A DNA stretch of 64,000 nt from Myxococcales bacterium (GTDB taxonomy: Bacteria; Myxococcota_A; Polyangia; Haliangiales; Haliangiaceae), in assembly GCA_016707895.1 (NCBI GenBank), contig JADJGV010000002.1, positions 655,695 through 719,694 on the forward strand, read 5' to 3'. Both the position numbers and the translations under genes were made by a program. The stretch's first letter is position 1. Every line of letters starts with the position of its first letter. Positions 1,392 to 63,475 of this stretch are shown in pieces. The notes under the pieces were generated by a model. The model was not told where the DNA came from. It saw only the letters and a program-made list of their open reading frames with translations, and did no database searches.

Positions 1392-5566
<4,175 letters not shown>

Positions 5567-6121: not shown

Positions 6122-6222
6122 TCCCGCCGCGCTGGTCGCCGCCCGACGTGTAGGTGCGGCGGGCGCCACGGCCCCGCGACCGGCGCTTGTGCGGGGCCGG
6201 CCGCTAGGCGATCCTGTCGGCC

Positions 6223-8316
6223 ATGAACCGTCGGGACTTCCTTCGCCTGTCCGGAACCTTCTTCGCCGCCGCCAGCCTCGGGGGCGTGGCCGCGTGTAGC
6301 GACGACGCCAAGCCCGCCACCGACGCCGGCATCGACGCGCCGCCGGTCGGGGCGTTCCTGTTCCCGCAGGGCGTCGGCTCGGGCGATCCGCGCGAGACGT
6401 CGGTCGTGCTGTGGACGCGCGCCGTGCCCGCGACCGGCGCCGCCAGCGTCGACCTCCGCGTCGAGGTCGCCAGCGACGCCGCCTTCGCGACGATCGTCGT
6501 GATGCAGTCGATCACCGCCGCCGCCGCCGCCGACCACACCGTGCGCGTCGTCGTCACTGGCCTGGCCGCCGACACGATCTACTACTACCGGTTCATCGCC
6601 GGCAGCGACTCGATCAACGGCCGCACCCGCACCGCGCCGGCCGCCAACGCCGACGTGCCGATCCGCATGGCGTGGGTCAGCTGCCAGGACTACGCCGCCG
6701 GCCAGTACCACGCCTACCGCCAGATGGTGCAGGACGACATGGCCCGCCCCGAGGCCGACCAGGTCCGCTTCGTGTTGCACCTGGGCGACTTCATCTACGA
6801 GACCCGCGGCGACGGCTTCCAGGCGGCGGTGGACGAGAACTTCCAGCCGATCACCGTCATGAACCAGGACGGGACGCCGCGCACGGTCGCCGCGTTCCCG
6901 TCGGGCGGCGGCACCGCCGGCACCTCGAACTTCGCCAAGACCGTCGAGGACTACCGCCACCTGTACAAGACCTTCGCCAGCGACCCCGACCTGCAGGCCG
7001 CGCGCGCCCGCTGGCCGTTCGTCCACACCTGGGACGATCACGAGTTCACCGACGACTGCTGGCAGTCGATGGCCAACTACACCGACGCCGAGGGGCTCGA
7101 CGAGCCGTCGCAGGCGCGGCGCTACGCCGCCAACCAGGCGTGGTTCGAGTTCGTCCCCTCGCAGCTGACGGGCGCGCTCGGCGTCACCGGCGTCACCCAG
7201 GACGCCCACGACTTCGCGACGGCGACGGTCGCCGACGCGCCGTTCACGACCGCGAACATCGACAACTTCGTGCCGGAGCCGAACAACGTCGCCGCGGTCG
7301 GCTCGATCACGATCTACCGCAGCCTGCGCTTCGGCCAGCACTACGAGCTGATCGTCACCGACGAGCGCTCGTACCGGAGCGACCACGCGATCCCGGAGGA
7401 GACGGCCGCGGTCGCTTTCGAGTACTTCAACCCGCGGTACGTCGTCCCGGCGGCCGACGTGGACGTCTGCGATGCTGGCAGTCTCAATCCGACGGGCGTC
7501 GTCTCGTCTCTCGGCGTGACCAACCCGCGCGCGACCGCGCCGGTCGGTACGATGCTGGGCAAGGCACAGAAGGACTGGTGGAAGGCCACGATGATGGGGT
7601 CGACGGCGACGTGGAAGGTCTGGGGCAACCAGGTCCCGTTCATGCGGTTCTTCATCAAGAACACCAACGGGTCGCTGGTCTCGGATCGCCTGATGGACGC
7701 CGACGCCTGGGACGGCTACCCGCGCGAGCGCCGCGAGCTGACGCAGTTCCTCGCGACCAACAACATCAAGAACGTGGTGCTCCTGACCGGCGACATCCAC
7801 GCGCACTTCGCCGGCACGGTGTCCGACGACTTCACGGCGGCGACGCCGACCGCGGTCGCCACCGAGTTCATCGCGGCGGGCATCTCGTCGAACTCGGTGT
7901 TCAGCTTCTACGAGGGCGCCTCGCGTGGCGGCACGGCGGCGGCGGCCCGCGCGCTGATCACCGTCGACGCCTCGGCCGGCGGCGGCAGCGCGTTCACCGA
8001 GAACATGAACCTGCTCTTGGTCCACGGCACCAACGCCGCCGGGACGTTCGCGCAGACGCGCGATCGGACAATGGCGCTGGCGGCGTCGGATCGCACGATC
8101 AACCCGCACCTCAAGTACGCCGACACCAACGCCCAGGGCTTCGGCATCGCCAAGTTCACCGCGACCCAGCTCGACGTCGTGCTGACCACGATGGAGCGCC
8201 CGATCGACAACTCGGCCGCCGTGAAGCGCACCGCCAGCTTCACCGTCCCCAAGGACAACCCCGCCGGCATGACCGGCCCCGAGCTCACCGGCACGTTGCC
8301 GTTCCCGCTGGCGTAA
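6223..8316 (+). CDS. phoD: Tat-secreted alkaline phosphatase / phosphodiesterase, PhoD family
   Basis: Twin-arginine signal (MNRRDFLRLSGTFFAAASLG). PhoD signatures HLGDFIYE and WDDHEF. 697 aa. Confidence 0.8.
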   Translation: MNRRDFLRLSGTFFAAASLGGVAACSDDAKPATDAGIDAPPVGAFLFPQGVGSGDPRETSVVLWTRAVPATGAASVDLRVEVASDAAFATIVVMQSITAAAAADHTVRVVVTGLAADTIYYYRFIAGSDSINGRTRTAPAANADVPIRMAWVSCQDYAAGQYHAYRQMVQDDMARPEADQVRFVLHLGDFIYETRGDGFQAAVDENFQPITVMNQDGTPRTVAAFPSGGGTAGTSNFAKTVEDYRHLYKTFASDPDLQAARARWPFVHTWDDHEFTDDCWQSMANYTDAEGLDEPSQARRYAANQAWFEFVPSQLTGALGVTGVTQDAHDFATATVADAPFTTANIDNFVPEPNNVAAVGSITIYRSLRFGQHYELIVTDERSYRSDHAIPEETAAVAFEYFNPRYVVPAADVDVCDAGSLNPTGVVSSLGVTNPRATAPVGTMLGKAQKDWWKATMMGSTATWKVWGNQVPFMRFFIKNTNGSLVSDRLMDADAWDGYPRERRELTQFLATNNIKNVVLLTGDIHAHFAGTVSDDFTAATPTAVATEFIAAGISSNSVFSFYEGASRGGTAAAARALITVDASAGGGSAFTENMNLLLVHGTNAAGTFAQTRDRTMALAASDRTINPHLKYADTNAQGFGIAKFTATQLDVVLTTMERPIDNSAAVKRTASFTVPKDNPAGMTGPELTGTLPFPLA

Positions 8317-49464: not shown

Positions 49465-50007
49465 CTAGCGCCCGTCCTCGCGCTCGGTCCGGATGCGCGG
49501 CAGGAGCGTCACGAAGTTGCAGGGGCGGTGCCGGCTGTCGAGCTGGGGGATCAGGATCTGCTCCATGCCCAGCCGGACCCCGCCGGTCGACCCCGGCAGC
49601 AAGAACACGTAGGTCTGGTCGCACAGCGCGGCCTCGGCGCGGCTCTGGATGGTCGAGGTGCCGATCTCGGCGAACGACAGGTAGCGGAACAGCTCGCCGA
49701 AGCCGGGGATCGGCTTGGTCACCAGCGGCGCCAGCGCCTCGGGCGTCACGTCGCGCGGCGTCACGCCGGTGCCGCCGGTGGCGATGATCACGTCGACCCC
49801 GGGGTCGGCGATCCACGCCGTGAGCGCGGCGCCGATCGCGTCGCGGTTGTCCTTGACGATCGCCCGCCCCGCGATCCGGTGGCCGGCGGCGGTCAGCAGC
49901 TCGACGATCAGCCCGCCGCTGCCGTCGTTCGCCTCGGTCCGGGTGTCGGACACGGTCAGCACGCCGACGTTGGCGGGGTGGAACGGGCGCGAGGGGTCGA
50001 TCGGCAT
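49465..50007 (-). CDS. Molybdenum cofactor biosynthesis protein, MoaB/MogA family
   Basis: GVLTVSDTR ... [18 protein letters not shown] ... LPGSTGG signatures. 180 aa. Confidence 0.75.
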
Positions 50008-50053: not shown

Positions 50054-51268
50054 CTACGCGTACTCGATCTGGATCGTCTCGATGATCGTCGTCACCGCGC
50101 GCTTGACCTGCTCGACGTCGGGATCGCGGACGACGACGTAGCCGTCGCCCTCGTAGCTGTCGGAGCGCGGCGCGCCGATCGTGGGCAGGCGCGACTCGAC
50201 CGCGAGGTGGCCGACCAGCGCGTTGGCGCGGTCGACGCCGCGCACCGCCTTGACCCGGCCGCGGCCGACGCCGCGCAGGTAGGCGACGCCGACCGCGTAC
50301 TTGCGGGTCCACGGGCCGTCGAAGGCGTCGTCGATCACCGCCCGGGCCCAGGCGCGGTACAGGTCGGCGTCGTGGGCGTAGCCGTTGGCCAGCACGATGT
50401 GCGCGCCGGGCGGGCGCGCGGCGATCTCGCCGATCGCCAGCGAGCCGTCGTCGCGGCGGAACCACTCCATGTGGGTGAAGCCGGTCTCCAGGCCGAGCGC
50501 GGCCACCGCCTTGACGCCCAGCGCGCGGGCGTCGGCGAACTCGGGGCCGTCGATGTCGCGCGGCAGCACGACGACCCACTGGATCCACGGCGTCTCCATC
50601 ACCTCGAGCGGCGTCGGGTAGTAGCGCGAGCACGACTGGAAGCGGACCTGGCCGCCGATCGTGATGGTCTCGAAGCTGTACTCGCGGCCGCGCAAGAACT
50701 CCTCGGCCAGCGCCGGCCGCTCGGGGCTGGCGTGCAGCGCCCGCAGCGCGGCGCGCAGCTCGTCGAGCGAGCCGATCCGCCACGTCGACTTGCAGCCCAT
50801 GCCGGCCGGCGGCTTGAGCACCAGCGGCAGCCCGACCTCGGCGACGAACGCCTCGGCGTCGCCCCAGGTGCGGATCAGCTTGTGGCGCGCGCACGGCAGG
50901 CCGTGGCGGCGCAGCTCGTCCTTCATCCGCGCCTTGTCGCGGAACAGCTCGGCGGTGCGCGGCGAGGTGCCGGGCACGCCCAGCGCCTGCCGCACCTCGG
51001 CCAGCTGCACCTGCAGCGGCTCGAGGATGCCGAGCACGCGGTGCAGCTTGCCGTGGCGGCGCTCGAGCGCGCGGGCGCCGGCGATCAGCTGCTCGGTGTC
51101 GAGGCCGTCGGCCACGGTGACGACGTCGGCGAACAGCTTGGCGTCGTCGCCGCGCGGCGGCTCCTGGGCCAGGCCCAGCAGGCGGACGCCGTCGAGGCGG
51201 GCCGCGGCGCGCGCGAAGCGCAGCGTGGTCTCGAGCGGGAACGGCGCGGCGAACACCACGTTGCGCAT
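50054..51268 (-). CDS. ATP-grasp domain amidoligase (paralog A)
   Basis: 404 aa. ATP-grasp core ([17 protein letters not shown] ... [14 protein letters not shown] ... [24 protein letters not shown]). Paralogous to 51330-52547 and 58740-59969. Confidence 0.7.
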
Positions 51269-51329
51269 CGCCGCGTTGTACCATGCGAGGTGGCGGGCCC
51301 GCGGGCTCGCCGAAGGAGCTCGCGCCCCC

Positions 51330-52547
51330 GTGAAGGTCGTCTTCCTCGCGCCCGCCTATCCCCCCGAGATGCAGCAGTACACGCGCGGCCTGGCCGAGGT
51401 CGGCGCCAGCGTGTACGGCGTCGGCGACGCGCCGGTCGCGTCGCTGCCGCGCTCGCTCAAGCAACACCTGACCGACTACCTGCAGGTGCCGCGGCTCCTC
51501 GACGAGGCCGACGTCACCGAGCGGGTCTACCAGTGGGTGCGTGGCCGCGGCGTCGATCGCGTGCTGGCCAACTGGGAGGTCATGGTCTTGACCGCGGCGC
51601 GGCTGCGCGAGCGCCTCGGCGTGCCCGGCATGAGCTACGACGCGGTGCGCGGGTTCCGCGACAAGCAGCTGATGAAGGAGCGCGTGGCCGCCGCCGGCCT
51701 GCGGGTGCCGCGCGCGGTCCGGGTGCGCAGCGCCGCCGAGGCCCGGGCCGGGGCTGCGCAGCTCGGCTACCCGCTGGTGCTCAAGCCGATCGCCGGCGCC
51801 GGCAGCGCCGACACCTTCCAGGTCGACAGCGACGCCGACCTCGAGCGGGCGCTCACCGCCACGCAGCACGTGCCGGAGTGCAGCCTCGAGGAGTTCATCG
51901 AGGGCGACGAGTTCACGTTCGACACCGTGTGCATCGGCGGCAAGCCGGCGTTCATGAACGTCGCGCAGTACCTGCCCAAGCCGCTGATCGCCCGCACCAA
52001 CGAGTGGATCAGCCCGGTCATCGTCACCGTGCGCAACCTCGAGCAGCCGGCGCTGACCGGCGGCGTGGCGCTCGGCAAGCGCGTGCTCACCGCGCTGGGC
52101 ATGGGCGACGGCTTCACCCACATGGAGTGGTTCAGCAAGCCGTCGGGCGAGGTGGTGTTCGGCGAGATCGGCTGCCGCCCGGGCGGCGCCCACCTCGTCG
52201 ATCAGATGAACTACACCTGCGACATCGACCTGTTCCGCGAGTGGGCGCGGGTGTCGTGCTGGGGCAGCTTCGAGGCGCCGACCACCCGCAAGTACAACGT
52301 CGCGATCATCTTCAAGCGGGCGCGGGGCCAGGGCCGCATCACCCGGATCACCGGGCTGCGCGAGTTCCTGCGCGCCCACGGCGAGCACGTCGTCGAGTCC
52401 AAGCTGCTGCCGGTCGGCGCCCAGCGCCGCAACTGGAAGCAGACCCTGGTCTCCGACGGCTACATCCTGCTCCGGCACCCCGACTGGCGCACCGCGGTCG
52501 AGCTGGCCAACATCGTCGCGACCGACGTCACGATGTACGCGGAGTAG
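51330..52547 (+). CDS. ATP-grasp domain amidoligase (paralog B)
   Basis: GTG start at VKVVFLAPAYP. Same architecture as paralog A (GYPLVLKPIAGAGSADT ... THMEWFSKPSGEVVFGEIGCRPGG). Divergently transcribed from paralog A. Confidence 0.7.
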   Translation: MKVVFLAPAYPPEMQQYTRGLAEVGASVYGVGDAPVASLPRSLKQHLTDYLQVPRLLDEADVTERVYQWVRGRGVDRVLANWEVMVLTAARLRERLGVPGMSYDAVRGFRDKQLMKERVAAAGLRVPRAVRVRSAAEARAGAAQLGYPLVLKPIAGAGSADTFQVDSDADLERALTATQHVPECSLEEFIEGDEFTFDTVCIGGKPAFMNVAQYLPKPLIARTNEWISPVIVTVRNLEQPALTGGVALGKRVLTALGMGDGFTHMEWFSKPSGEVVFGEIGCRPGGAHLVDQMNYTCDIDLFREWARVSCWGSFEAPTTRKYNVAIIFKRARGQGRITRITGLREFLRAHGEHVVESKLLPVGAQRRNWKQTLVSDGYILLRHPDWRTAVELANIVATDVTMYAE

Positions 52548-54594
52548 GATCGGCGGGCGCGCCGCGCGGCGTGTCGAGGGTGCGGTCGGGGACGTCGTCG
52601 TCGGCGGGCTCGCTGTCGGCCTTGGCCACCGCCACCGCGCTGCGGTCGAGGCTGTCGCTGGTGCGGTCGGGCCCGTCCTTGGACAGCTGGTCCTCGAGCA
52701 TCCGCGAGGCGATGTCCATGAAGTCTTCCTCGGTGACGATCCCGACCAGCCGGCCCTCGTCGACCACGGGCAGGCAGCCGACCTTGAGCCGGCGCATCAG
52801 CTGCAGCGCCTCGAGCGTGCGGGTCGCGGGCGTCACCGTCGTCGGGTCGCGCTTCATGATCTCGGCCACCGGCGTGCGCCGCGCCGAGCCGCCGTCCATG
52901 ATGAAGCGCAGCACCGCGCGGTGGGTCACCACGCCGACCAGCCGGTGGTCCTTGTCCTCGACCGGGACGTGGCGGATGCGCTCCCAGATCATCAGGTTGG
53001 CGACCATCTCGATGGCGTCGTCGGCCTGCACCGTGAACAGGTCGCTGGTCATGTAGTGCTCGATGCGCCGGTAGTTGCCGCCCTTGGCGTGGGCCTCGTC
53101 GAGCCGGGCCCGCTCCCACTCCGACACCGGGCGCCCCGAGTCCTGGCGGGCGACGGTCGCGGCCACCAGCGCGTTGGCGCGCTCGGCCGGCGTCGAGCGA
53201 TCGCGCAGCGAGTTCCACGACGACAGCTGCCAGCGGGCGCCGGTGCGCGCGGTGCGGACCCGCTCCTCGATGACGCCGAGGTAGCGCTTGACGTCGGTCG
53301 GCACGACGCCCTGGCGGCGCAGCCCGGCCTCGGCCAGCGGCAAGAGCCGCTCGAGCATCAGCTCGCGCGCCGAGATGTCCTCGCCGTCGAGCCAGGTGAA
53401 GTGCGCGCCGATGCCCTCGCGGGCCGCGGTGTAGAAGTTGGCGCCGGCCTGATCGAAGTCCATCCGGCGAGGCACGTCGTCGAGCCGGTGGCCCAGCTCG
53501 ACCATCAGCCCGCACCACAGCGCGGCGTTGGCCATCTCGTCGAGCGTGCTGGGCCCGGCCGGCATGATCCGGTTCTCGATGCGCAGGTGCGGCTTGCCGT
53601 CGATGATGCCGTAGCAGGCGCGGTTCCAGCGGTAGATCGTGCCGTTGTGCAGGCGCAGCGCCTTGAGCTGGGGCGCCTCGCCGCGATCGAGCATCGCCAT
53701 GGGATCCTCGTCGAGGTCGGTGCCGACCAGCGGCCGGAACCGGGCGATGTCCTCCTTGAAGATCTCGACCACCGACTGCCGCACCCAGCGGGTGCCGAAG
53801 CTGACCCGGGCCTCCTGCTCGCGGATCGTGCCGCCCTTGGCGCGGGTGTCGACCGCCTGCCGGAACAGCGCGATGCGGGTCTCGGCCCACAGCCGCTTGC
53901 CGAACAGGATGGGCGAGTTCGACGACACCGACATCAGCGGCCCGGCCAGCAGCTGGGCCAGGTTGTAGTAGCGCGCGAACTCCTCGGGGCTGACCTGCAG
54001 GTGGACCTGGAAGCTCGAGTTGCAGGCCTCGACCATCACCGAGTCGTGCTCGATGGTCAGCTCGTCGAGCCCCTTGATCGCGAACTCGAAGCGGCCGCCG
54101 CGCATCGCGGTCAGCACCTTGTTGAGCTGCAGGTAGCGCTTGCTCGGCACCATGCCGTCGAGGCCCAGGTGGCTCTGGCGCATCGTGGGCAGGATGCCCA
54201 TCAGCACCACCTCCATGCCCAGCTCGCGGGCCGCGGTGCGCGCCTTGCCGACCAGCAGGTCGAGCTGGGCGTGCATCTTCGACAGGCCGTCGCCGCCGAA
54301 CACCTGCGGGTCGCAGTTGGCCTCGAGCTGGAACTGGCCGAGCTCGGTGGTGTAGTGCGGGTCGGGCCGCAGCTTGTCGAGCAGCGCCAGCACGCCCCGG
54401 GCCGGCGCCCACTGCTCGTCGATCAGGAACAGCTCCTGCTCGGCGCCGATCCGCCGCACGCCGGTCTCGAACCGGCGCTCGGCGATCATCCGGTCGAGCG
54501 CGCGCAGGTCGGCGAGCACCGCGCTGGTGAACTCGCGCTGGCGCTCGGCGTCGAGGGCGCCGTCGGTGTCCTTGTGCTCCCGCGTCGTCGTCAT
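52528..54594 (-). CDS. Glutamate-cysteine ligase family 2 (GCS2/YbdK-like carboxylate-amine ligase) fused to tandem C-terminal CBS domains
   Basis: N-terminal GCS2-like core (RIGAEQELFLID ... NSSFQVHLQV ...). C-terminal CBS pair (HYMTSDLFTVQADDAIEMVANLM ... GCLPVVDEGRLVGIVTEEDFMD). Start set at MTTTREHKD with ATGA coupling to the upstream esterase. Confidence 0.7.
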   Translation of the reverse strand: MTTTREHKDTDGALDAERQREFTSAVLADLRALDRMIAERRFETGVRRIGAEQELFLIDEQWAPARGVLALLDKLRPDPHYTTELGQFQLEANCDPQVFGGDGLSKMHAQLDLLVGKARTAARELGMEVVLMGILPTMRQSHLGLDGMVPSKRYLQLNKVLTAMRGGRFEFAIKGLDELTIEHDSVMVEACNSSFQVHLQVSPEEFARYYNLAQLLAGPLMSVSSNSPILFGKRLWAETRIALFRQAVDTRAKGGTIREQEARVSFGTRWVRQSVVEIFKEDIARFRPLVGTDLDEDPMAMLDRGEAPQLKALRLHNGTIYRWNRACYGIIDGKPHLRIENRIMPAGPSTLDEMANAALWCGLMVELGHRLDDVPRRMDFDQAGANFYTAAREGIGAHFTWLDGEDISARELMLERLLPLAEAGLRRQGVVPTDVKRYLGVIEERVRTARTGARWQLSSWNSLRDRSTPAERANALVAATVARQDSGRPVSEWERARLDEAHAKGGNYRRIEHYMTSDLFTVQADDAIEMVANLMIWERIRHVPVEDKDHRLVGVVTHRAVLRFIMDGGSARRTPVAEIMKRDPTTVTPATRTLEALQLMRRLKVGCLPVVDEGRLVGIVTEEDFMDIASRMLEDQLSKDGPDRTSDSLDRSAVAVAKADSEPADDDVPDRTLDTPRGAPADPTPRTS

Positions 54595-55349
54595 CGCACC
54601 CCTTCGCGTAGCCACTGCTCGAGGATCTGCGGCAACATCTTACGCCAGGTGATCCAGTCGTGGGGCCAGTCGGGGCCCCAGGAGTCGACCCGGTTGGGCA
54701 CCCCGGCCTTGCCCAGCACCTTGGCCAGGTTCCACGACTCGCCGATGTCCTCGGCCTTGCCCTCGCCCGAGACGATGTGGACGTAGCGGGTCCGCAGCAC
54801 CTCGAGGTGGCGGCCGCCCAGGGTCGGCACGAAGTGCAGCGGCGACGACACCCAGAAGTGGTCGGTGAACTCGCGGGCGTCGTAGAACCGGCGCAGGTCG
54901 TAGGTGCCGCTCATCGCGATCGCGCGGGTGAAGACGTCGGGGAACCGGCACACCACCGCCGCGGCGTGGAACGCGCCGATCGACGCGCCCGCGGTCCAGA
55001 TCGGGAGGTCGGCGGTCTTGCAGTCGGCGCGGATCGCCGGCACCACCTCCTGGCGGACGTAGTGGTGGAACTGGTTCTGCAGCCACATCTGGTGCTGCGG
55101 CGACCGCTCGCGGGTGAGCAGCGCCTTGCCGGCCACCGAGTCGCACGAGTAGACCTTGAGCTGGCCGCTGTCGAGCAGCGGGGCCAGCACGTCCATCATC
55201 TGGAACCGCTCGACCTCCTCGGCGTCGCCGCCGGCGGTCGGGAACAGCAGCAGCGGCTGGCCGATGGTGCCCCACTTGACCATCGTGACGTCGCGCTCGA
55301 GGCGGTCGCTGCGCCAGCGGCCGACGACCTTGTCGCCGCGCTCACCCAT
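54591..55349 (-). CDS. Alpha/beta-hydrolase esterase (putative esterase family)
   Basis: GASIGAF nucleophile elbow. Esterase-D/Fes-like C-terminal domain. 252 aa. Confidence 0.6.
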   Translation of the reverse strand: MGERGDKVVGRWRSDRLERDVTMVKWGTIGQPLLLFPTAGGDAEEVERFQMMDVLAPLLDSGQLKVYSCDSVAGKALLTRERSPQHQMWLQNQFHHYVRQEVVPAIRADCKTADLPIWTAGASIGAFHAAAVVCRFPDVFTRAIAMSGTYDLRRFYDAREFTDHFWVSSPLHFVPTLGGRHLEVLRTRYVHIVSGEGKAEDIGESWNLAKVLGKAGVPNRVDSWGPDWPHDWITWRKMLPQILEQWLREGVR

Positions 55350-56610
55350 GGCTGGCACCACCCGCGGGGCCCCCGGTGCCGGGCTCGGCGCGCCACGCCT
55401 GGATGCGCTTCCAGAACAGCTCGGTGAACGGCTCGACCTCGTGCTTGGGGAACAGCGCCGCGACCTTGGCCCGCACCGCGCCCTTGGCGGTCTCGGTGCC
55501 GAAGAACTCCCACGCCACCTCGTCGAGGTTGGCCAGGTGGGTGGCGCAGAACTCCTCGAAGCGGTCGGCCTCGAAGCGCTGCTTGGCGATCGCCGCGTAG
55601 GCCCGCAGCTTGTCGCGGTACGGCCGGTCGCGATCGGCGGCGATCGCGTAGAACGGCTCCCAGTCCAGCGTCTTGCGCATCGGCCGCTTGGTCACCGCGC
55701 AGAAGATCGACCACCGCAGGTTGGCCTTCACCAGCCACGGGAAGTGGCGGTGGAGCGACGTCACCTGCGAGTCGGGGCACGGGTTGGCGAAGTCGATCGG
55801 GAACCAGTCGCCGCCCTTGCGCAGCGCCTCGCACGAGTTGAAGTCCCAGCCGAAGAACGCGTTGATCGTCAGCGTCGTGTCGCGCAGGATCTCGGCCTCG
55901 TCGGCCGACACGAAGTCGGTGGCCTGGGTGTAGCGATCGTGGAGCGCGGCGTCGGGGTCGTACTTGACCAGGTGGGTCTGCGGGCCCAGCCCGATGCAGC
56001 GCACGAAGCTGTCGAACGGGTGCACCGCGGCCTGCAGGTGCATGACGCTCTTGCCGCTCTCCTCGTAGCGGGCCTTGAGCTGGGCCTCGTCGGCGCAGCG
56101 GCTGACCGCGCGCCAGCCGCCGCCGTCGTACGGCTTCATGAACAGCGGGTAGCCGAGCTGCTGGCCGATCGCGCGCAGGTCGAACAGCTTGGCGTAGCGC
56201 TTGAGCGTCGGCGCCAGGTCGGGCAGCGGCTCGTAGTCCTTGGGCGGCACCATCCAGGTGGCGGGGATGGGCATGCCCAGCGCCATCATCGCGCAGTACG
56301 AGGTGTGCTTCTCGTTGGCCTGCACCGACCACGGGTTGTTGAGGACGTAGAGGCCGTCCATCAGGATGGCCTTTTTGATCCACTCGCGGCTGGTGTGGTA
56401 CCAGTGGGTCAGCCGGTCGAGGACGACGTCGTACTTGCACGGCTGGCGCAGGTCGAACGGCTCGATCGTGACGCGCTCGGTGGCGATCTTGACGGTGTCG
56501 CCCTGCCACGGGATGGCGAGGTCGAGCTTGCCGAGGATCTGCTCGTAGCAGATCGGCCAGCAGATGTCGGCGCCCAGCGAGAGACCAATGGTGCGGGTGA
56601 CGGGGGCCAT
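55342..56610 (-). CDS. Glutathionylspermidine-synthase-like (GSP-synth, YgiC/YjfC family) ATP-grasp amidoligase
   Basis: LNNPWSVQANEKHTSY and LFMKPYDGGGWRAVSR parallel the YgiC motifs LEPAWKSIISNKALL and VVKPIFSREGANVSI. Start set at the second Met, with AGGA 8 nt upstream. Confidence 0.55.
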   Translation of the reverse strand: MAPVTRTIGLSLGADICWPICYEQILGKLDLAIPWQGDTVKIATERVTIEPFDLRQPCKYDVVLDRLTHWYHTSREWIKKAILMDGLYVLNNPWSVQANEKHTSYCAMMALGMPIPATWMVPPKDYEPLPDLAPTLKRYAKLFDLRAIGQQLGYPLFMKPYDGGGWRAVSRCADEAQLKARYEESGKSVMHLQAAVHPFDSFVRCIGLGPQTHLVKYDPDAALHDRYTQATDFVSADEAEILRDTTLTINAFFGWDFNSCEALRKGGDWFPIDFANPCPDSQVTSLHRHFPWLVKANLRWSIFCAVTKRPMRKTLDWEPFYAIAADRDRPYRDKLRAYAAIAKQRFEADRFEEFCATHLANLDEVAWEFFGTETAKGAVRAKVAALFPKHEVEPFTELFWKRIQAWRAEPGTGGPAGGASHG

Positions 56611-56620
56611 CGCTTCCATC

Positions 56621-57757
56621 CTATTCGTAGACGAGCAAGAACGGGCCCGGCAGCAGCCACGACAGCGCGTCGCGCAGGCGATCGCGCCAGTTCTCCCAGT
56701 TGTGACCGTCCCGGGCTTCCACGTAGCGGACATCCATGCCTGTGCCGAGCAGCATCGGCACCAGCGAGCGGTTCTCGTAGATCAGCGACTCGTACATGCC
56801 GCAGCTGACGAACACCCGCTCCGAGACCGCGGTCGGCTCGGCGCGGAACCGGTTCATGAACGCGACCACCGGGTCGAACAGCGGGCCGCGGTGGTTGCGG
56901 TCGCCGATGTCGGTGAAGGCGAAGCTGCCCGACTGCAGCAGCAGCCGGCCGTAGAAGCCGGGGTAGCGGCACGCGGTCGACAGCGCGGCGACCGCGCCGA
57001 AGCTGGCGCCCATCAGGCACCGGCTCTGCGGCACCGCCTCGAGCGGGAAGGTGCGCTCGACGAACGGCACCAGGTCCTCGGTCACGTAGCGGGCGTGGCG
57101 CTCGTCGTCGGCGTACTCGCGCAGCCGGTCGGGCGAGCTGGTGAACACGACGATCGCGTCGGCGACCTCGAGCCGATCGATCAGGTTGTCGAGCACGGTG
57201 CCCATCGACGCGTAGCGCAGGTAGTCGTGGCCGTCGTGCACGACCAGGAGCGGGTAGCGCCGGCTGCGCTTGAACCGCGCCGGCACGTACAGCCCGAAGC
57301 TGCGCCGGCCGAAGGTCTTGGAGTCGAGGAAGATCTCGTCGAGGCGGCCCGGCGGCGCGGCGCGGTCGTGGTGGATCCAGCCCGGCACCTCGTAGCCGGT
57401 GCCGTGGGCCACCGAGTTGGCGCCGAACGGATCGCGGGCCAGCGCCCCGTTGAGCGGGTCCTGGATCCACTCGCCCTTGCCGTGGCGGACGACCTCGAGC
57501 TTGTACTCGACGCGCGAGCCCGGCGGCAGCTGCATCGTCAGGTGCCAGACGTCGGTGCCGTCGACCCGGGCCAGCGACTGCGACGACGGCAGGCCGAACA
57601 CCCAGTGCTTGAGGTGCACCGCCTCGGCGTCGCCGCGCCAGACGAACGTGATCGACGGGCCGACCACCACCGGGAACTTGTGGCGGCCCATCCACGCGTC
57701 GACCGCCTCGCGGGTGCGCGGGGTGGCCTCGAGCTCGGCGATCGCGGCCGCGCTCAT
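56621..57757 (-). CDS. Esterase with N-terminal Ig-like domain (enterochelin-esterase/putative-esterase family)
   Basis: Start MSAAAIAELE. VVHDGHDY and GASFGAVAAL nucleophile elbow. C-terminal HNWENW. ATGA overlap with the upstream gene. Confidence 0.6.
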   Translation of the reverse strand: MSAAAIAELEATPRTREAVDAWMGRHKFPVVVGPSITFVWRGDAEAVHLKHWVFGLPSSQSLARVDGTDVWHLTMQLPPGSRVEYKLEVVRHGKGEWIQDPLNGALARDPFGANSVAHGTGYEVPGWIHHDRAAPPGRLDEIFLDSKTFGRRSFGLYVPARFKRSRRYPLLVVHDGHDYLRYASMGTVLDNLIDRLEVADAIVVFTSSPDRLREYADDERHARYVTEDLVPFVERTFPLEAVPQSRCLMGASFGAVAALSTACRYPGFYGRLLLQSGSFAFTDIGDRNHRGPLFDPVVAFMNRFRAEPTAVSERVFVSCGMYESLIYENRSLVPMLLGTGMDVRYVEARDGHNWENWRDRLRDALSWLLPGPFLLVYE

Positions 57758-58740
57758 GGCGTCACCTCGTCGAGGCTGTCGGCGAGCGCGCGGACCGCCG
57801 GATCGTCGGGGCGCCCGCTCCACGCGGCGTCGATGCCGCCGTCGGGCCGCAGGTGGCGGCCGCGGCCGGCGACCAGCGCGCCGTCGACGAAGTCGAGCCG
57901 GGCGCCGAGGTCCATGCCGACGCACACCGCCGGCGCCATCCGCCGCGCGAACCGCGCGATCGCCGGGCCGGTGTCGGGGTTGAGCCGCCGGCTGGGATCG
58001 GGCATCACGACCACGCCGGGCGCGACGCCGAAGCCGCTGTCGAGCACCTGCGCGACGTCGGAGCCGTACGGCGGGTAGTCGTGATAGAGGACGATGCGGT
58101 CGGTGAGCACCATCGCGCCGGCGCCCCAGGCGATGATCGGCTTGCCGGCGGCCAGGCCCAGCAGGTCGAACAGCTCGAGCCGGTTGTGCAAGGACGCGAC
58201 GTGGCCGCCGGCGATGACCACCGCCTCGACCGGGGCCAGCAGCGCCGCCAGCTCGGCCCGGTGGCGCGCCACCGTCGGCCGATCGGTCGGGTGCCACAGC
58301 GCGGCGAACGCGGTGCGCACCTGCTCGCAGCGGATGACGTGGTTGGCGTCGAGCTGCCGGAACTGCTCGACCGACACCGCGTCCTCGCCCTCGAGCAGCT
58401 CGGGCTCGAAGTAGCGCAGCGCGATCGTCCGGGCCGCGTCCTCGGTCTTCTCGAGCCGCACCCGGTAGCAGCTCTGCATGTGGCGGAGCAGCGCCTGGCG
58501 ATCGCGGTAGGCGGTAGTGAACGAGGGATCGTCGGCGAACACCGCGCTGGCCCGCGCGTGCAGCGCCAGGTTGATCGCTGGCACGCCCAGCGCCGCGACC
58601 AGCGGACCGTCGTCGGCCTCGCGCTCCTGGTAGCCGGCGCGCACGATCGCGATCGGGCCGCGCAGGCCGCGCTCGCGCACCACCGCGCCGACGTCGGGCG
58701 TGGCGTGCTGCGAGCCGAGCACGATCACCTCGGCGGCCAT
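57754..58740 (-). CDS. Class-I glutamine-amidotransferase-like / peptidase E (S51, cyanophycinase)-like protein
   Basis: VVIAGGHVASLHNRLELFDLLG ... PIIAWGAGAMVL resembles the GG ... G(T/x)SAGA pattern of S51 peptidases, but the nucleophile Ser position appears to be Gly. ATGA coupled to the upstream ATP-grasp gene. Confidence 0.4.
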   Translation of the reverse strand: MAAEVIVLGSQHATPDVGAVVRERGLRGPIAIVRAGYQEREADDGPLVAALGVPAINLALHARASAVFADDPSFTTAYRDRQALLRHMQSCYRVRLEKTEDAARTIALRYFEPELLEGEDAVSVEQFRQLDANHVIRCEQVRTAFAALWHPTDRPTVARHRAELAALLAPVEAVVIAGGHVASLHNRLELFDLLGLAAGKPIIAWGAGAMVLTDRIVLYHDYPPYGSDVAQVLDSGFGVAPGVVVMPDPSRRLNPDTGPAIARFARRMAPAVCVGMDLGARLDFVDGALVAGRGRHLRPDGGIDAAWSGRPDDPAVRALADSLDEVTP

Positions 58741-59969
58741 CAGCGCGCGTGGACCTTCAGCGTGCGGCCGACCGCGTCGAGGATCTGCCGGCAGCGGTCG
58801 TAGTCCTCGTGCTTCATCCGCACCCAGGCGTTGGCCATGTAGCCGGCCTCGACGCCCTGGGTCGGCGTGCCCGGCGGCGGCAGGTGCCAGTCGATCAGGT
58901 TGGCGCCGAACGCCTCGCGGATCGCGTCGACGCCGTCGTAGTGGCTGATCCGGCCGTCGCGGTCGGGGCGCAGCGCGATGATGCCGGCGGCCATCCGCCG
59001 CGACGGGCGCTGGCTGGGCCGGCCGGCGGCGATCAGCATCGCCCACTCGCGGTACAGGTCCATGTCGTTGCCGACGTTGTAGAGGTCCCACGCGCGCACG
59101 CCCGGCGGGCGGCAGCCGATCTCGGAGAACTTCAGGCCCTTGGGCCCGAAGAACCACTCCATGTGGGTGGCCGAGGTCTCGATGCCGAGCAGCTCGATCA
59201 CCTTGGCCGCCATGGCCTTGATCTCGCGGTAGCCGTCGGCCTGGTCGATGCGGTTGGTGGTGATGAACTGCGGCGAGATCCACCGCGTGCGCATCGCCTC
59301 CAGCACGTTGGGGTAGTAGTGGGTCGCGAACTCGTGGACCACGCGGCCGCGGAGGGTCAGCGTGTCGAAGAAGCCCTCGTGGCCCTCGATGAACTCCTCG
59401 ACCGCGATCGACCGACCGTGCTGCAGGTGCAGCGCGGCGGCCGCGGCCTCGAGCTCGCGGTCGTTGTCGACCCGGGCCGCGCCCGAGGCGCCGGCGCCGT
59501 CGCGCGGCTTGACCAGGATCGGGTAGCCGACCTGCTCGGCGAAGGCCCGGACCTCGGCCAGCGAGCCGGCGGCGGTCGACTGCGCGCATGGCACGCCACC
59601 GGCGCGCAGCACCTCCTTCATCGCCGGCTTGTCGCGGCACAGGAACGCGGTGCGCGCGCTGGTGCCGGGGATGCCGGCCGCCTCGCGGACGTGGGCGGTG
59701 GGCAGGATGTGAGCCTCGACCGAGGCCTCGAGCCGATCGACGTGGGCGTGGCGCTGGATGAACCGCACCTTGGCCAGCACCTGCTGCTCGTCGCAGACGT
59801 TGGTGACCTCCTCGTAGTGGGTCAGCCAGCGCTTGAGGTCGTCGTCGAGCGACGCCTTGCTGCCCTCGCCGATCGCGCTGATCGTCGCGCCGACCTCGGC
59901 CAGCGCGCGGATGAACTGCTTCTGGTTGGCGGGGAACCGCGGCTCGATGAAGACGACGTGCATGGCCAT
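58740..59969 (-). CDS. ATP-grasp domain amidoligase (paralog C)
   Basis: 409 aa. GYPILVKPRDGAGASG ... EEFIEGHEGFFDT ... THMEWFFGPKGLKFSEIGCRPPG. Paralog of the 50054 and 51330 genes. Confidence 0.7.
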   Translation of the reverse strand: MAMHVVFIEPRFPANQKQFIRALAEVGATISAIGEGSKASLDDDLKRWLTHYEEVTNVCDEQQVLAKVRFIQRHAHVDRLEASVEAHILPTAHVREAAGIPGTSARTAFLCRDKPAMKEVLRAGGVPCAQSTAAGSLAEVRAFAEQVGYPILVKPRDGAGASGAARVDNDRELEAAAAALHLQHGRSIAVEEFIEGHEGFFDTLTLRGRVVHEFATHYYPNVLEAMRTRWISPQFITTNRIDQADGYREIKAMAAKVIELLGIETSATHMEWFFGPKGLKFSEIGCRPPGVRAWDLYNVGNDMDLYREWAMLIAAGRPSQRPSRRMAAGIIALRPDRDGRISHYDGVDAIREAFGANLIDWHLPPPGTPTQGVEAGYMANAWVRMKHEDYDRCRQILDAVGRTLKVHAR

Positions 59970-59985
59970 TCTCTCCCTCGGGATC

Positions 59986-61425
59986 TCAGCGGTCGGTGCC
60001 GATCAGCTTCTCGTAGACGTACTCGTAGCGGCGGGCCTGGCGGTCCCACGAGAAGTCGGCGGCCATGCCGTTGTCGATCAGCCGCGACCACGCCGGCGCG
60101 TCGCGGTAGGTCGCGAGCGCGGCCTGCATCGCCCAGCGCACGCCGGCGGCGTCGTGGTGCTCGAAGACGAAGCCGGTGCCGGTGCGGGTGCGCGGGTGCC
60201 ACGGCCGCACGGTGTCGGCGAGGCCGCCGGTCTTGTGGACGATCGGCACGGTGCCGTAGCGCAGGCTGTACAGCTGGTTGAGGCCGCACGGCTCGTAGCG
60301 CGACGGCATCAGGAACATGTCGGCGCCGGCCTCGATCTGGTGCGCCAGCTTGTTGCTGAAGCCCTGGTAGAAGCAGACCTGGCGCGGGAACGCGCGCTGC
60401 AGGCGGGTGAACATGTCCTCGAGGCCCGGCTCGCCGCTGCCGAGGACCGTGAGCTGGAAGCCGTTGCGCTGGAGCAGGCCCGGCAGCACCTCGCCGAGCA
60501 GGTCGAAGCCCTTCTGGCTCGCCATCCGCGACACGATGCCGACCACCGGCGCGCTGGGCACGTAGGGGAGCCCGAGGCTCTCGACCAGCGCCTGCTTGCA
60601 CACCGCCTTGTTGCTGCGATCGGCGGCGGAGTAGCGCGCGGGCAGGTAGCGATCGTTCTCGGGCGACCACTCGTCGTAGTCGACGCCGTTCAAGATGCCG
60701 ACGACGGTGGTCTTGCGCGCGCGCAGGAAGCCGTCGAGGCCGGCGCCGTGGGCCGGCGTCTGGATCTCCTGCGCGTAGGTCGGGCTGACCGTCGACACGC
60801 CGTCGGCGTAGAGGATGCCCTGCAGGAGGAAGTTGACCCGGCCGGCCTTGAGCAGCTCCTGGTGGAACAGGTGCGCGAACTGGGTGAGGTTGGTGTCGGG
60901 GCCGATCGAGTCGGGGAACCCGCCCTGGTAGTTGAGGTTGTGGATCGTCAGCAGCGACCGCGCGCCGGCGAGGTGGCGGTTCCGCGCGTAGATGGTCTTG
61001 AGGAGCAGCGGGATCAGCGCGGCCTGCCAGTCGTGGCAGTGGACGACGTCGGGCGCGAAGTCGAGCCGGCCGCACAGCTCGAGCGCGGCGTACGACAGGA
61101 GCAAGAACCGGCGGTGCTCGTCGGCGTCGCTGGTGTAGAGGCGGCCGCGGGCGTAGAGCGGCGGGCAGTGCAGGAAGTAGATCGTGGGCGCGGTGCCCAG
61201 CGCCAGCACCCGCACCTGATAACGGTGGGGGCCGAGCGGGATGGTCAGCTCGGCGACCTGGGTCAGCGTCACGCCGTCGAGCTTCGCCGTGTCGTACAGC
61301 GGCACGACGATGCGGACGTCGTGGCCGGCCCGGGCCAGGGTTTTGGGCAGCGCGGCCACGACGTCGGCCAGGCCACCGGTCTTGGCGTAGGGCGCCAGCT
61401 CAGAAGCAACGAACAGCAGCTTCAC
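59986..61425 (-). CDS. glgA: Glycogen synthase (ADP-glucose type)
   Basis: MKLLFVASELAPYAKTGGLADVV N-terminal signature. GT-B C-terminal domain. 479 aa. Confidence 0.85.
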   Translation of the reverse strand: MKLLFVASELAPYAKTGGLADVVAALPKTLARAGHDVRIVVPLYDTAKLDGVTLTQVAELTIPLGPHRYQVRVLALGTAPTIYFLHCPPLYARGRLYTSDADEHRRFLLLSYAALELCGRLDFAPDVVHCHDWQAALIPLLLKTIYARNRHLAGARSLLTIHNLNYQGGFPDSIGPDTNLTQFAHLFHQELLKAGRVNFLLQGILYADGVSTVSPTYAQEIQTPAHGAGLDGFLRARKTTVVGILNGVDYDEWSPENDRYLPARYSAADRSNKAVCKQALVESLGLPYVPSAPVVGIVSRMASQKGFDLLGEVLPGLLQRNGFQLTVLGSGEPGLEDMFTRLQRAFPRQVCFYQGFSNKLAHQIEAGADMFLMPSRYEPCGLNQLYSLRYGTVPIVHKTGGLADTVRPWHPRTRTGTGFVFEHHDAAGVRWAMQAALATYRDAPAWSRLIDNGMAADFSWDRQARRYEYVYEKLIGTDR

Positions 61426-61480
61426 GAGCCCCCGACGATACCAGAGCGCGCGGGCCGGCGCGCCGGCGTGGGGCCGGTTG

Positions 61481-62383
61481 TTACCACCAGGCGGCGAGGG
61501 CCGCGGCCAGCGGGGCGGCGAGGCGCGCGACCTGGGCCGCGCCGATGCGCATCTCGGCGAACGGCGACCACGGATCGGCCAGCAGATCGCGGCGGACCTC
61601 TAGGCACAGCGTGCGGCCTGGCAGGGCGAGCACGTGGGCGTAGGCCTGGGTGCTGGGGTGGAGCGGATAGGTGGCGCCTCCGGCGACGTCGAGGCCGAGC
61701 GCGGTGGCGGCGGTGGTGAGGGCCGCGACGACGGCCGGCGGCGCGTGGTCGACGCCGTCGAGGGTGCGGGCGATGACGTCGAGCGCCGGGCGGAGCGGCC
61801 AGGTGTCGGCCCGATCGGGCGCGTAGGCGCGCCGCAGGTTGGGCACGATCTCGTGATCGACCTGCACGTCGACGGTGCGCGGCGCGTAGGTGTGCAGCAT
61901 TAGCATCGCGCCATCGGCGGCCAGCGCGGCGCGCGCGGCCATGACGGTGGCGACGTAGGCGTCGAACACGCCGCGCAAGAGCACGCGGTCGGCGTCGGTC
62001 GCGATCCACGGCATCAGCCCGGGGCCGACCTTGCCGGTGCGGAAGTCCTCGGGCGACGCGTCGATCTGCCGGTTGCAGTCGATGAACGTCCGCGGCACGC
62101 GGCAGCGGAGGATGAGGACGCTGCGGGTTGGCTGCGCTGCGACCAGCGCGTGCGCCGTGGCGGTGGCTAGCTCGGGCGCGCCGGCGTCGGTGTTGACGTG
62201 GAAGAAGTCGCTGAGGTCCGCCGGCAGCGGGCTCGTCAGCTGCGCCGCGTAGTGATCGTAGTCGGAGGTGCGCGTCGCGCCGTGCGGGATCTCGATCAGC
62301 AGATCGGGCGCGGGGCCGGCGGCCGCGCCGCGGATCAGCTCGACATCGACGACGTGGGGGATGGACGACGGCAGCGAAGTCAC
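61481..62383 (-). CDS. N-formylglutamate amidohydrolase (FGase) family protein
   Basis: LLIEIPHGATR ... DCNR motifs typical of the FGase/HutG-like zinc amidohydrolase family. 300 aa. Confidence 0.6.
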   Translation of the reverse strand: MTSLPSSIPHVVDVELIRGAAAGPAPDLLIEIPHGATRTSDYDHYAAQLTSPLPADLSDFFHVNTDAGAPELATATAHALVAAQPTRSVLILRCRVPRTFIDCNRQIDASPEDFRTGKVGPGLMPWIATDADRVLLRGVFDAYVATVMAARAALAADGAMLMLHTYAPRTVDVQVDHEIVPNLRRAYAPDRADTWPLRPALDVIARTLDGVDHAPPAVVAALTTAATALGLDVAGGATYPLHPSTQAYAHVLALPGRTLCLEVRRDLLADPWSPFAEMRIGAAQVARLAAPLAAALAAWW

Positions 62384-62831: not shown

Positions 62832-62845
62832 AGTAAGTGCTTACT
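62832..62845. promoter_or_regulatory. Perfect inverted repeat AGTAAG-TG-CTTACT, putative TetR operator
   Basis: Palindrome lies 10 nt upstream of the TetR ATG (62855). Confidence 0.45.
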
Positions 62846-62854
62846 CTCCGGCGC

Positions 62855-63475
62855 ATGGGCGAGCTGCGGCGCACATCCTTGGATCGACAGGTCGAGCTGA
62901 CCGACGCCGCGCTGCACATCATCGCGACCAAGGGCATCGCGGCTCTGAGCACGCGCAGCCTCGCGGCGCAGGTCGGGCTCTCGAGCGGCGCGATCTTCAG
63001 GCACTTCGCATCCCTCGAGGCGCTGCTCGACGCGGTCGTGGCGCGCGTCGAGGCTGTGCTCGCGTCCACCTATCCGCCGTCGACGCTGCCTCCCGTGGAG
63101 CGCCTCGAACGCTTCGTCGAGGCTCGCAGCACCGCGGTGGGCAAGCAGCTCGGCATTCTGCGGCTCGTCCTCTCGGAGCAGTTCCTGCTCGCGCTCCCTC
63201 AGCGCGGCTCGGCCCGCCTGGCGGCCTGCGTGCAGCAGACGCGCGCGTTCGTGCTCGCGTGCGTTCGCGAGGGCCAGGACGCAGGCGCGCTGCGCTCAGA
63301 TCTCCCCGCCGAGACGCTCGTACCGATCGTCATGGGCACCGTGCAGGTGCTGGCGCTCTCGCCGTCGAAGCCTCGGCAGCGAGATGCCGAAGCGCGCGCA
63401 GTCCTGGGCAGCCTGCTCGCGCTCCTCCGTTCGCCCGCTGTCGCTCCCACGTCGAGCAGAAAGAGTTCCCCATGA
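62855..63475 (+). CDS. TetR-family transcriptional regulator
   Basis: N-terminal HTH (IAALSTRSLAAQVGLSSGAIFRHFASLEALL). 206 aa. Confidence 0.8.
   Translation: MGELRRTSLDRQVELTDAALHIIATKGIAALSTRSLAAQVGLSSGAIFRHFASLEALLDAVVARVEAVLASTYPPSTLPPVERLERFVEARSTAVGKQLGILRLVLSEQFLLALPQRGSARLAACVQQTRAFVLACVREGQDAGALRSDLPAETLVPIVMGTVQVLALSPSKPRQRDAEARAVLGSLLALLRSPAVAPTSSRKSSP

Follow-up and report, generated by a model that had tools for sequence, protein, structure and literature searches.

The stretch of Myxococcales DNA analyzed here (64,000 nt of contig JADJGV010000002.1, hereafter the window) carries, between positions 50054 and 62383, ten genes (G1–G10) that fill this interval exactly, with 12,234 coding nucleotides in a span of 12,330 nt (99% coding). 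An initial annotation made from the sequence alone had described a dense amidoligase/amidohydrolase cluster in this place, and we find that such a functionally linked cluster of amidoligases and hydrolases is genuine, its genes being linked in 160 loci from related and distant genomes alike. Pfam and NCBIfam scans of the ten proteins, in which scores were compared with family cutoffs, bear out the three ATP-grasp paralogs, the GCS2 ligase fused to CBS domains, the two esterases, and the FGase of that description. Five of its proteins are thus ligases that activate carboxylates at the expense of ATP, and they belong to two superfamilies (four to ATP-grasp, one to GCS2).

Genes were called from a frame plot of third-position GC content (GC3), analysis of open reading frames (ORFs), and inspection of start codons; because the window has a GC content of 70–78%, its six-frame ORF list consists mostly of artifacts, and the GC3 plot resolves a single unambiguous gene in each interval. 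A single minus-strand operon starts with G10 (61481–62383, 300 aa), an amidohydrolase of the FGase family (PF05013), and continues through G9 (59986–61425, 479 aa), which is GlgA, a glycogen synthase of the ADP-glucose type (GT5); G8 (58740–59969, 409 aa), an ATP-grasp protein of the L-amino-acid-ligase type usually found beside glgA; G7 (57754–58740, 328 aa), a protein of S51/GATase1 fold with a long helical hairpin insert and a Gly at the nucleophile position; G6 (56621–57757, 378 aa), a Fes/CE1-type serine esterase with an N-terminal beta-sandwich (Enterochelin_N/CBM48-like); G5 (55342–56619, 425 aa), the anchor gene of the cluster, from an ATP-grasp ligase family without a Pfam model; and G4 (54591–55349, 252 aa), a small alpha/beta-hydrolase esterase (PF00756). 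It ends with G3 (52528–54594, 688 aa), a GCS2 carboxylate-amine ligase of ~500 aa followed by a C-terminal CBS pair. Two further ATP-grasp proteins of the L-amino-acid-ligase type, G1 (50054–51268, minus strand, 404 aa) and G2 (51330–52547, plus strand, 405 aa), are encoded head-to-head, and the 61 nt between these divergent genes form the largest intergenic gap; G2 and G3 converge and share 20 nt at their 3′ ends (52528–52547).

The ATGA coupling noticed initially is found at G7/G6 and G4/G3 (4-nt overlaps) and is accompanied by a 1-nt overlap at G8/G7 (TGATG) and an 8-nt overlap at G5/G4, the other operon junctions being gaps of 55 nt (G10/G9), 16 nt (G9/G8), and 1 nt (G6/G5). No signal peptide was found in the ten proteins, nor any obvious transmembrane segment by a crude hydrophobicity check, and the ten products are predicted to be cytoplasmic, co-transcribed, and translationally coupled. 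As previously stated in the initial annotation, there is no gene for a precursor peptide: with gaps of at most 61 nt the window leaves no room for one, and a search for short ORFs found none conserved across the 160 loci, except for low-complexity off-frame artifacts.

These 160 loci (cited by L numbers where they have to be told apart) are the best 80 from a one-genome-per-species scan that returned at least 597 G5 relatives, together with 80 from an independent metagenome scan; G1–G10 were searched by tblastn against all of them, within ±10 kb around G5, and phyla were read from record titles. At least six phyla are represented, with loci from Myxococcota (Kofleriaceae, Haliangiales, Polyangiaceae, Archangiaceae, Labilithrix, Sandaracinaceae, Bradymonadia) and also from Acidobacteriota, Planctomycetota, Gammaproteobacteria (Steroidobacteraceae, Nevskiaceae, Rhodanobacteraceae), Eisenbacteria, and Binatia, with a G5 identity of 64–84% in the best 80 of the at least 597 loci. 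In the 59 loci that span 15 kb or more, G6 and G7 are each present in 56, G4 in 51, G8 in 45, G9 in 39, G3 in 36, G2 in 34, G1 in 30, and G10 in 12, and at least six of the ten genes occur together in 45. Gene order is also maintained: in 66 of 73 loci G6 is the gene directly upstream of G5, and in 67 of 69 it adjoins G7, G5 adjoins G4 in 53 of 60, G4 adjoins G3 in 39 of 43, G8 adjoins G9 in 32 of 39, and G1 adjoins G2 in 24 of 25. At an orthologous locus, independent gene calls with precomputed Pfam assignments match our gene model and show two more ATP-grasp paralogs after G1. Since it recurs in 160 independent loci, this co-location goes far beyond chance.

The initial annotation had regarded the triple ATP-grasp expansion, its divergent pair, and the CBS fusion as unusual, when all of them prove to be standard features of the family across phyla. 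No transporter family recurs in main-family loci. A variant locus of lower GC content (0.57; L088:3347-7729) encodes a canonical GCS2 protein (199 bits, no CBS), an MFS transporter, an esterase resembling G4, and a ligase 43% identical to G5, a hint that the oldest module is the trio of G3, G4, and G5. In a JGI metagenome, an 8.3-kb contig (Ga0073899_10009402, L142) shows 95–100% protein identity to G5–G10 of the window, and an organism identical or very close to the source of the window is thus present in that sample.

Ligases and the anchor family

The G5 protein adopts an ATP-grasp fold with RimK and LysX as nearest structures and with graspetide ligases among its top fold matches. In sequence, it has no Pfam match at E ≤ 10 and stays below the cutoffs of the RimK/LysX models (24.1 vs. 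143.4 bits for TIGR00768; 24.9 vs. 275.6 bits for TIGR02144). Four residues, K162 (in MKPYDGGGW), E264, D276, and N279, are invariant in 32 close and 8 distant sequences and are predicted, by analogy, to bind ATP and Mg2+. A C-terminal helical domain of ~120 residues has no counterpart in RimK. The label of a glutathionylspermidine-synthetase-like ligase, initially given to this protein, was rejected, as G5 has no match to GSP_synth (PF03738) and its fold is closest to RimK/LysX rather than to GspS. Homologs number more than 6,700 in a large protein collection, the top 120 being 77–97% identical, and a profile search of representatives at 50% identity returned no more than 299 clusters with an E below 1e-30, of which many are fragments; the family is therefore compact and distinct. 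An exact-match look-up of the G5 sequence returned no record, and for an ortholog labeled “Myxococcus sp.” the cluster look-up gave only “hypothetical protein.” Overall, G5 represents a new RimK/LysX-like ATP-grasp family.

Some further observations concern this family. Four cysteines (C20, C24, C263, C281) are invariant in the main clade, not in the distant clades, and may form a structural metal site. With regard to the distant clades themselves, a degenerate-pattern scan of metagenomes found none, and a single-protein scan returned main-family loci only. Apparent fusions of G5 (P0246, P0264, P0269, P0296, P0363, P0279) were discarded as frameshifted run-ons of neighboring genes.

The three other ATP-grasp proteins are 32–37% identical to one another over their full length (36.7% for G1 vs. 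G2, 32.4% for G1 vs. G8). Their matches exceed Pfam gathering cutoffs for PF02222 in G1 (37 bits) and G8 (36.4 bits; cutoff 27) and for PF13535 in G2 (30.1 bits; cutoff 27), with ATP-grasp_4, ATP-grasp, and ATPgrasp_N all matched in G2 and ATP-grasp and CPSase_L_D2 in G8; LAL_C2 stays below gathering in G1 and G8 (22.3 and 16.6 bits vs. 29.4). The best relatives of G8 in the Protein Data Bank (PDB) are the L-amino-acid ligases RizA (4wd3, 3.6e-13), BL00235 (3vot), and BacD, an assignment that G1 and G2 share by paralogy, the search having been made with G8. All three are thus predicted to be ligases of the L-amino-acid-ligase type. That the ligases might belong to characterized housekeeping families, a possibility raised at the outset, found no support: every NCBIfam equivalog score, those for PurT and GshB-like enzymes included, lies far below its cutoff, be it Ddl (37 vs. 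243), cyanophycin synthetase (45.8 vs. 877), purK (43 vs. 318), the RimK family (24–30 vs. 143), BacD (40 vs. 850), or DdaF (24 vs. 840). G1 orthologs are 42–81% identical in 28 genome loci and G8 orthologs 60–81% identical, and the values of G5 and G8 are those expected of a housekeeping-like role.

The number of these paralogs is not fixed. Where the window has three, one locus (L161/L162:16602-21248) holds four consecutive genes of the G1/G2/G8 type, or five when its G8 ortholog is counted, and L009 and L067 each carry one extra copy, so that ligase number varies between lineages.

The fifth ligase, G3, matches GCS2 (PF04107) with 31.4–32.7 bits against a cutoff of 21, over model positions 2–181 of 291 only, and its two CBS domains score 92.6 bits. 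Glu, His, and Arg residues of the ligase domain are invariant in 22 orthologs, and a gamma-glutamyl-cysteine or other gamma-glutamyl-amine ligase activity is predicted; neither the single sequence nor a 22-sequence profile of this domain found a sequence relative in the PDB. The CBS region is reached by all 39 G3 orthologs that could be aligned from near the N-terminus, save one cut by a contig end.

Hydrolases and the glycogen synthase

Both esterases exceed the PF00756 cutoff of 22 bits, G4 with 34.6 bits and a GASIG nucleophile motif, and G6 with 72.4 bits. G6 additionally matches Enterochelin_N (32 bits), and the combination of Esterase and Enterochelin_N is found in 28 of 28 G6 orthologs, in which G250, A251, S252, and G254 (GASFG) and H352 are invariant. 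Its PDB relatives are Fes (2b20) and a CBM48-CE1 feruloyl esterase (6rzo). G6 therefore shares with the enterobactin esterases Fes/IroD and with the CBM48-CE1 esterases (feruloyl or acetyl-xylan) a beta-sandwich joined to a PF00756 hydrolase with intact GxSxG and His; it differs from them in that it is predicted to be cytoplasmic, that it has a unique invariant C-terminal extension, and that no siderophore or xylan genes occur in the window or in the loci. In line with this difference, its score for the enterochelin esterase equivalog NF007758 is 96.2 bits, when the cutoff is 222.

This C-terminal extension is not covered by the Pfam esterase model, which ends before it, and reads PGPxxx[V/I/T]-Tyr-Glu-stop (window 56621–56653, at the 3′ end of the gene), with the exact Tyr-Glu terminus present in 135 of 138 orthologs. 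The codons used for it vary (GAG 70 and GAA 65 for Glu; TAC 115 and TAT 21 for Tyr), all three stops occur, and the terminus is kept in 13 loci where G6 does not adjoin G5; because of this synonymous codon and stop variation and of these 13 nonadjacent loci, selection acts on the exact C-terminus of the protein and not on an overlapping ribosome-binding site. None of the other cluster proteins has a conserved C-terminus. As for the N-terminal domain of G6, its candidacy as a glycogen binder was dropped: CBM_48 is matched by 1 of 28 orthologs, and hhalign against an approximate AMPK-beta CBM sequence gave a probability of 32%. Moreover, the CBM48 modules of CE1 esterases have been reported not to bind starch or the other glycans tested (PMC8040265), so that this domain offers no evidence of glycogen binding.

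For G7, the initial annotation had recognized the S51/GATase1-like fold, which stands, and had missed that the Ser nucleophile is absent. The protein shows the fold of S51 peptidases and class-I amidotransferase-like proteins (cyanophycinase), the top structural match being itself a pseudo-CphB, with a long two-helix hairpin inserted at residues 72–149. Its nucleophile elbow reads AW-G-AGA instead of G-x-S-A-G, and in 37 relatives this position is occupied by S (27), G (7), or A (3); it aligns, weakly, with the G-T-C-A-G elbow of PdxT, besides which profile and single-sequence searches of the PDB found no usable relative. Invariant residues are H180, H220, D221, S227, D228, Q231, D234, D248, and R251, among which H180, H220, D221, S227, D228, D248, and R251 could form a different site.

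The amidohydrolase G10 scores 35.1 bits for PF05013 (gathering 28.9), has no NCBIfam match and no PDB sequence match, and is not accompanied by hut genes in the cluster or the scanned flanks. It is found in 17 of 160 loci only. In 23 loci within L012–L160, a gene for an AstE/AspA-like protein (succinylglutamate desuccinylase/aspartoacylase; PF24827, 61 bits; for example L015:13582-14685 and L022:9593-10465), which the window lacks, lies directly downstream of G3, and this gene and FGase occur together in 2 loci only. FGase, AstE, and AspA are all metal-dependent hydrolases of N-acyl-Glu or N-acyl-Asp; their alternation therefore suggests a nonorthologous replacement and, as the substrate, a molecule in which an acidic residue is N-acylated. 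The distribution of these genes thus suggests that the AstE/AspA-like protein, a predicted deacylase, is an eleventh member of the cluster that, in other lineages, for the most part takes the place of FGase.

In the middle of the operon, the initial gene list had left out G9. This protein scores 536.7 bits for TIGR02095 (cutoff 328.45), 465.2 for NF001899 (cutoff 459), and 244 for Pfam Glyco_transf_5; its residues 1–474 align to E. coli GlgA (2qzs, E 3.5e-90), and the KxGGL motif is present as AKTGGLADV at residues 13–21. By these matches, G9 is identified as a full-length canonical GlgA glycogen synthase. Among the 52 glgA copies of the 160 loci, 47 lie within 400 nt of a paralog of the G1/G2/G8 type, and this linkage survives inversion and relocation: G2-G9-G8 has moved downstream in Steroidobacteraceae (L044, L055, L080), and G8/G9 is inverted in Acidobacteriota (L065) and Planctomycetota (L068). 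glgA is thus an integral and conserved member of the cluster.

A proposed peptide-bond pathway and its alternatives

We propose that the cluster encodes a widespread, vertically conserved cytoplasmic pathway that would make and break peptide bonds (amide, possibly ester) without the ribosome, a nonribosomal peptide synthetase (NRPS), or a precursor peptide, and that would be genetically coupled to glycogen synthesis, a proposal drawn by analogy with known enzyme families and, in our judgment, evenly poised between right and wrong. In such a pathway, G1, G2, and G8, whose ligase class is predicted from their sequences, would each turn a carboxylate into an acyl-phosphate and then join it to an amino acid. 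G5, with its ATP-grasp fold and catalytic residues, would extend a peptide or protein at a carboxylate of its C-terminus or of a side chain, and G3 would form a gamma-glutamyl-type amide, possibly gated by the binding of adenine nucleotides to its CBS pair, as in known CBS pairs. The apparently active hydrolases G4, G6, and G10 (or an AstE/AspA-type enzyme) would then trim or recycle the product. Because it combines a cyanophycinase fold with the lack of a Ser nucleophile, G7 would more likely serve as a scaffold or binding subunit than as a peptidase.

The product of this pathway would probably contain acidic residues, since FGase, AstE, and AspA cleave N-acyl-Glu or N-acyl-Asp, and would probably hold several distinct bonds rather than being a homopolymer, since there are five distinct, individually conserved ligases. 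It may serve inside the cell as a reserve or stress compound, or it may be the tail of a protein, in either case being made and degraded as carbon and energy status change, a possibility we base on the co-inheritance of glgA, the CBS sensor, and the pairing of synthases and hydrolases in one operon; the cluster would hardly seem to be that of a secreted natural product. No competing assignment came from PADLOC (antiphage defense; 0 matches for all ten proteins), Rfam, or the NCBIfam equivalogs.

Several points weigh against this proposal. The whole functional reading is an analogy at the level of families, and the link to storage and energy is drawn from CBS, glgA, and the ligase/hydrolase pairing only. 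Two PF00756 esterases would be superfluous for a purely amide-linked product, and no other glycogen genes occur in the cluster, leaving the role of GlgA without a mechanistic explanation. In several loci (L026, L030, L033, L052, L074) only G7-G6-G5 are found within ±10 kb, and in others (L096, L117, L120) only G5 and G8; the ten genes may therefore correspond to two to four cooperating modules instead of one linear pathway. Finally, horizontal transfer could account for part of the high identity across phyla, and the taxonomic labels of metagenome-assembled genomes (MAGs) can be wrong.

A bolder version of the proposal, speculative and in our view unlikely, is that of a “code” for modifying proteins after translation, or polymers, with writers and erasers, in which G5, the three to five L-amino-acid-ligase paralogs, and the CBS-gated GCS2 enzyme would build a peptide on the C-terminal Glu of G6 or on the glucan of GlgA, which M14-like or FGase deacylases and esterases would erase, the whole being tied to glycogen and energy status; it would be loosely comparable to the tyrosination and glutamylation cycle of tubulin.

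Alternatively, the cluster could make a small metabolite in soluble form, for instance a glutathione-like thiol of low molecular weight, an osmolyte consisting of a gamma-glutamyl peptide, or a peptide antibiotic or siderophore of ATP-grasp origin in the style of rhizocticin, bacilysin, or dapdiamide. The nearest solved relatives of G8 (RizA, BacD, BL00235) are ligases of dipeptide antibiotics, GCS2 is the family of gamma-Glu-Cys ligase, PF00756 includes S-formylglutathione hydrolase (a weak match of G6), and in L088 the MFS transporter gene lies between the GCS2 and esterase genes. However, the main family has no conserved gene for transport, tailoring, or resistance, an identity of 60–84% across phyla in roughly 600 or more species representatives is atypical of a secondary-metabolite cluster, and ten genes with four hydrolase-like proteins seem excessive for an osmolyte or thiol, and glgA would go unexplained, which makes this alternative improbable, if the least so among the rivals.

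In another scenario, G5 would ligate amino acids onto the C-terminal Glu of G6, or dock there, and FGase or AstE/AspA-type enzymes (M14-like) and the S51-like protein would remove or read the resulting tail, in a cycle that may be likened to RimK acting on ribosomal protein S6, LysX on LysW, or TTL and CCP on tubulin. RimK, LysX, and TTL use C-terminal Glu acceptors, and the Tyr-Glu end of G6 has the traits that such a site might show, namely its near invariance despite codon and stop variation, its retention away from G5, its position beyond the esterase model, and its being the only conserved C-terminus of the cluster, in a gene that usually sits directly upstream of G5; the AstE/AspA family, for its part, has a faint match to Peptidase_M14 (E 0.36). 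Set against this, the tail (PGPLxMVYE) has a hydrophobic character that distinguishes it from those of S6, LysW, and tubulin, which are acidic and disordered, and it could instead form a strand of the structure or a contact within an oligomer; G6 is missing from the neighborhood of some G5 genes (L096, L117, L120, L088); and neither the three to five L-amino-acid-ligase paralogs nor GlgA are accounted for. Both the tagging scheme and its likeness to the RimK, LysX, and TTL/CCP cycles are, on balance, quite improbable.

We would place at the same low level the idea of a cyanophycin-like reserve polyamide, in which ATP-grasp ligases would polymerize amino acids into a nitrogen store alongside glycogen, to be degraded by the S51-like protein and the other hydrolases. 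RimK-type enzymes and some L-amino-acid ligases can make homo-oligomers. With the cyanophycin system (CphA, CphB) the cluster has in common the fold of G7, the clustering of synthesis and degradation genes, here in one operon with glgA and with a CBS energy sensor on G3, and a plausible storage setting. It differs from it by the lack of any CphA architecture (TIGR02068/NF010623; 45.8 bits against 877) and of a Mur-ligase domain, and by a G7 protein that bears the hairpin insert and, in the window as in 10 of 37 relatives, is devoid of the Ser nucleophile, with a pseudo-CphB as top structural match; besides, five distinct conserved ligases fit a defined sequence more than a homopolymer.

More doubtful still is a glycan-linked product, for which the ligases would aminoacylate the alpha-glucan of GlgA through an ester, or build a peptide on it, and CE1/Fes esterases would remove these decorations. 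ATP-grasp enzymes can make esters, as VanA and graspetide ligases do, and graspetide ligases figure among the fold matches of G5; yet we know of no precedent for an aminoacylated glycogen. The linkage of glgA across phyla and through rearrangements speaks for a glycan link, as do two enzymes of the CE1/Fes family, one of which (G6) has the CBM48-CE1 architecture of 6rzo (PMC8040265), when the same type of CBM48 domain failed to bind starch or other glycans tested (PMC8040265), GlgA is entirely canonical, and many loci have G7-G6-G5 without glgA within 10 kb. Lastly, a chance juxtaposition of housekeeping genes or an annotation artifact, such as the high GC content and the many spurious six-frame ORFs of the window might produce, is refuted by the GC3 plot, the independent gene calls in an ortholog, the synteny in 160 loci, and the fact that no housekeeping cutoff is reached, and its probability is negligible.

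Returning to the proposed pathway, the cluster would work, by analogy, like known ATP-grasp peptide-ligase pathways. With the L-amino-acid ligases (BacD/YwfE, RizA/RizB, BL00235, DdaF), G8, G1, and G2 have the ATP-grasp core in common, and a succession of ligases like that of RizA and RizB is a plausible model; in contrast to those pathways, the cluster contains no antibiotic tailoring or export genes, and its spread and conservation resemble primary metabolism. G5 differs from RimK and LysX/ArgX by an identity of ~12% and by its extra C-terminal domain, and the cluster contains neither S6, the ribosomal protein that RimK tails with poly-Glu, nor a small acidic carrier like LysW, the amino-group carrier protein on which LysX/ArgX act, its only candidate acceptor tail (G6 ...VYE) being hydrophobic. 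Unlike clusters for RiPPs (peptides made by the ribosome and modified after translation), including graspetide clusters, it has no precursor-peptide gene. Because comparisons with BacD, RizA, DdaF, Ddl, CphA, RimK, GspS, Fes, and active S51 peptidases each fail in at least one defining feature, the cluster is not a member of any characterized pathway.

The closest parallel is computational: in 2009, Iyer, Abhiman, Burroughs, and Aravind (Mol Biosyst 5:1636) reportedly predicted amidoligase neighborhoods of ATP-grasp, GCS2 (COG2170), and FGase genes. These neighborhoods are reported likewise to associate ATP-grasp and glutamine-synthetase-like/GCS2 ligases with amidohydrolases (FGase and proteins resembling peptidases) in operons, with a predicted ribosome-independent synthesis of peptides or peptide tags. 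The features of the present cluster that we have not traced to prior work are the integral glgA, the anchor without a Pfam model, the two Fes/CE1 esterases, the S51 protein without nucleophile, and the invariant Tyr-Glu end. In searchable full text, we found nothing on a cluster joining such ligases to glgA, Fes-type esterases, and an S51-like protein.

From a metabolic perspective, the carriers amount to roughly 600 or more species-level genomes in abundant soil and freshwater groups, and the proteins are conserved like core metabolic enzymes, when the anchor G5 and several of its neighbors are annotated as “hypothetical” wherever they are named. Five dedicated ligases would imply a defined nonribosomal peptide, or a peptide modification, that present maps of bacterial metabolism do not include, and the linkage with glgA and CBS suggests an unrecognized layer of control over carbon, nitrogen, or energy reserves. 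Three things are new here: a family of ATP-grasp proteins for which Pfam has no model, a pseudo-S51 protein occurring in nature, and an esterase whose C-terminal Tyr-Glu is invariant; if the coupling to glycogen or to the C-terminal tail were mechanistic, the system would be categorically new.

Control regions and flanking genes

A scan of positions 49–64 kb against Rfam at E ≤ 0.1 gave no match, and a scan for sigma-70 promoters and terminators gave no signal above the shuffle background. A TACAAC/TACAAG hexamer is found ~8–14 nt upstream of the G1 start (window 51269–51290) and is conserved in loci of the Kofleriaceae and Haliangiales types, as seen in the G2/G1 intergenic regions of L002–L022 and L067, some of which are only 21–24 nt long; it may be the −10 element of a leaderless or short-leader transcript.

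The cluster is flanked by a MogA-like gene (49465–50007) and by a gene for a TetR-family regulator (62837–63475, plus strand), neither of which is conserved with it; the latter is divergent from G10, with a gap of ~450 nt, and may be a lineage-specific regulator. Farther away in the window, positions 1383–8316 hold Wzz/tyrosine-kinase-like and CapD-like polysaccharide genes and a PhoD phosphatase gene, and positions 15151–21275 (plus strand) encode a 1063-aa protein with an eCIS_core domain (PF13699), upstream of an AAA+ ATPase with a winged-helix domain, both of them possible remains or accessory parts of an extracellular contractile injection system.

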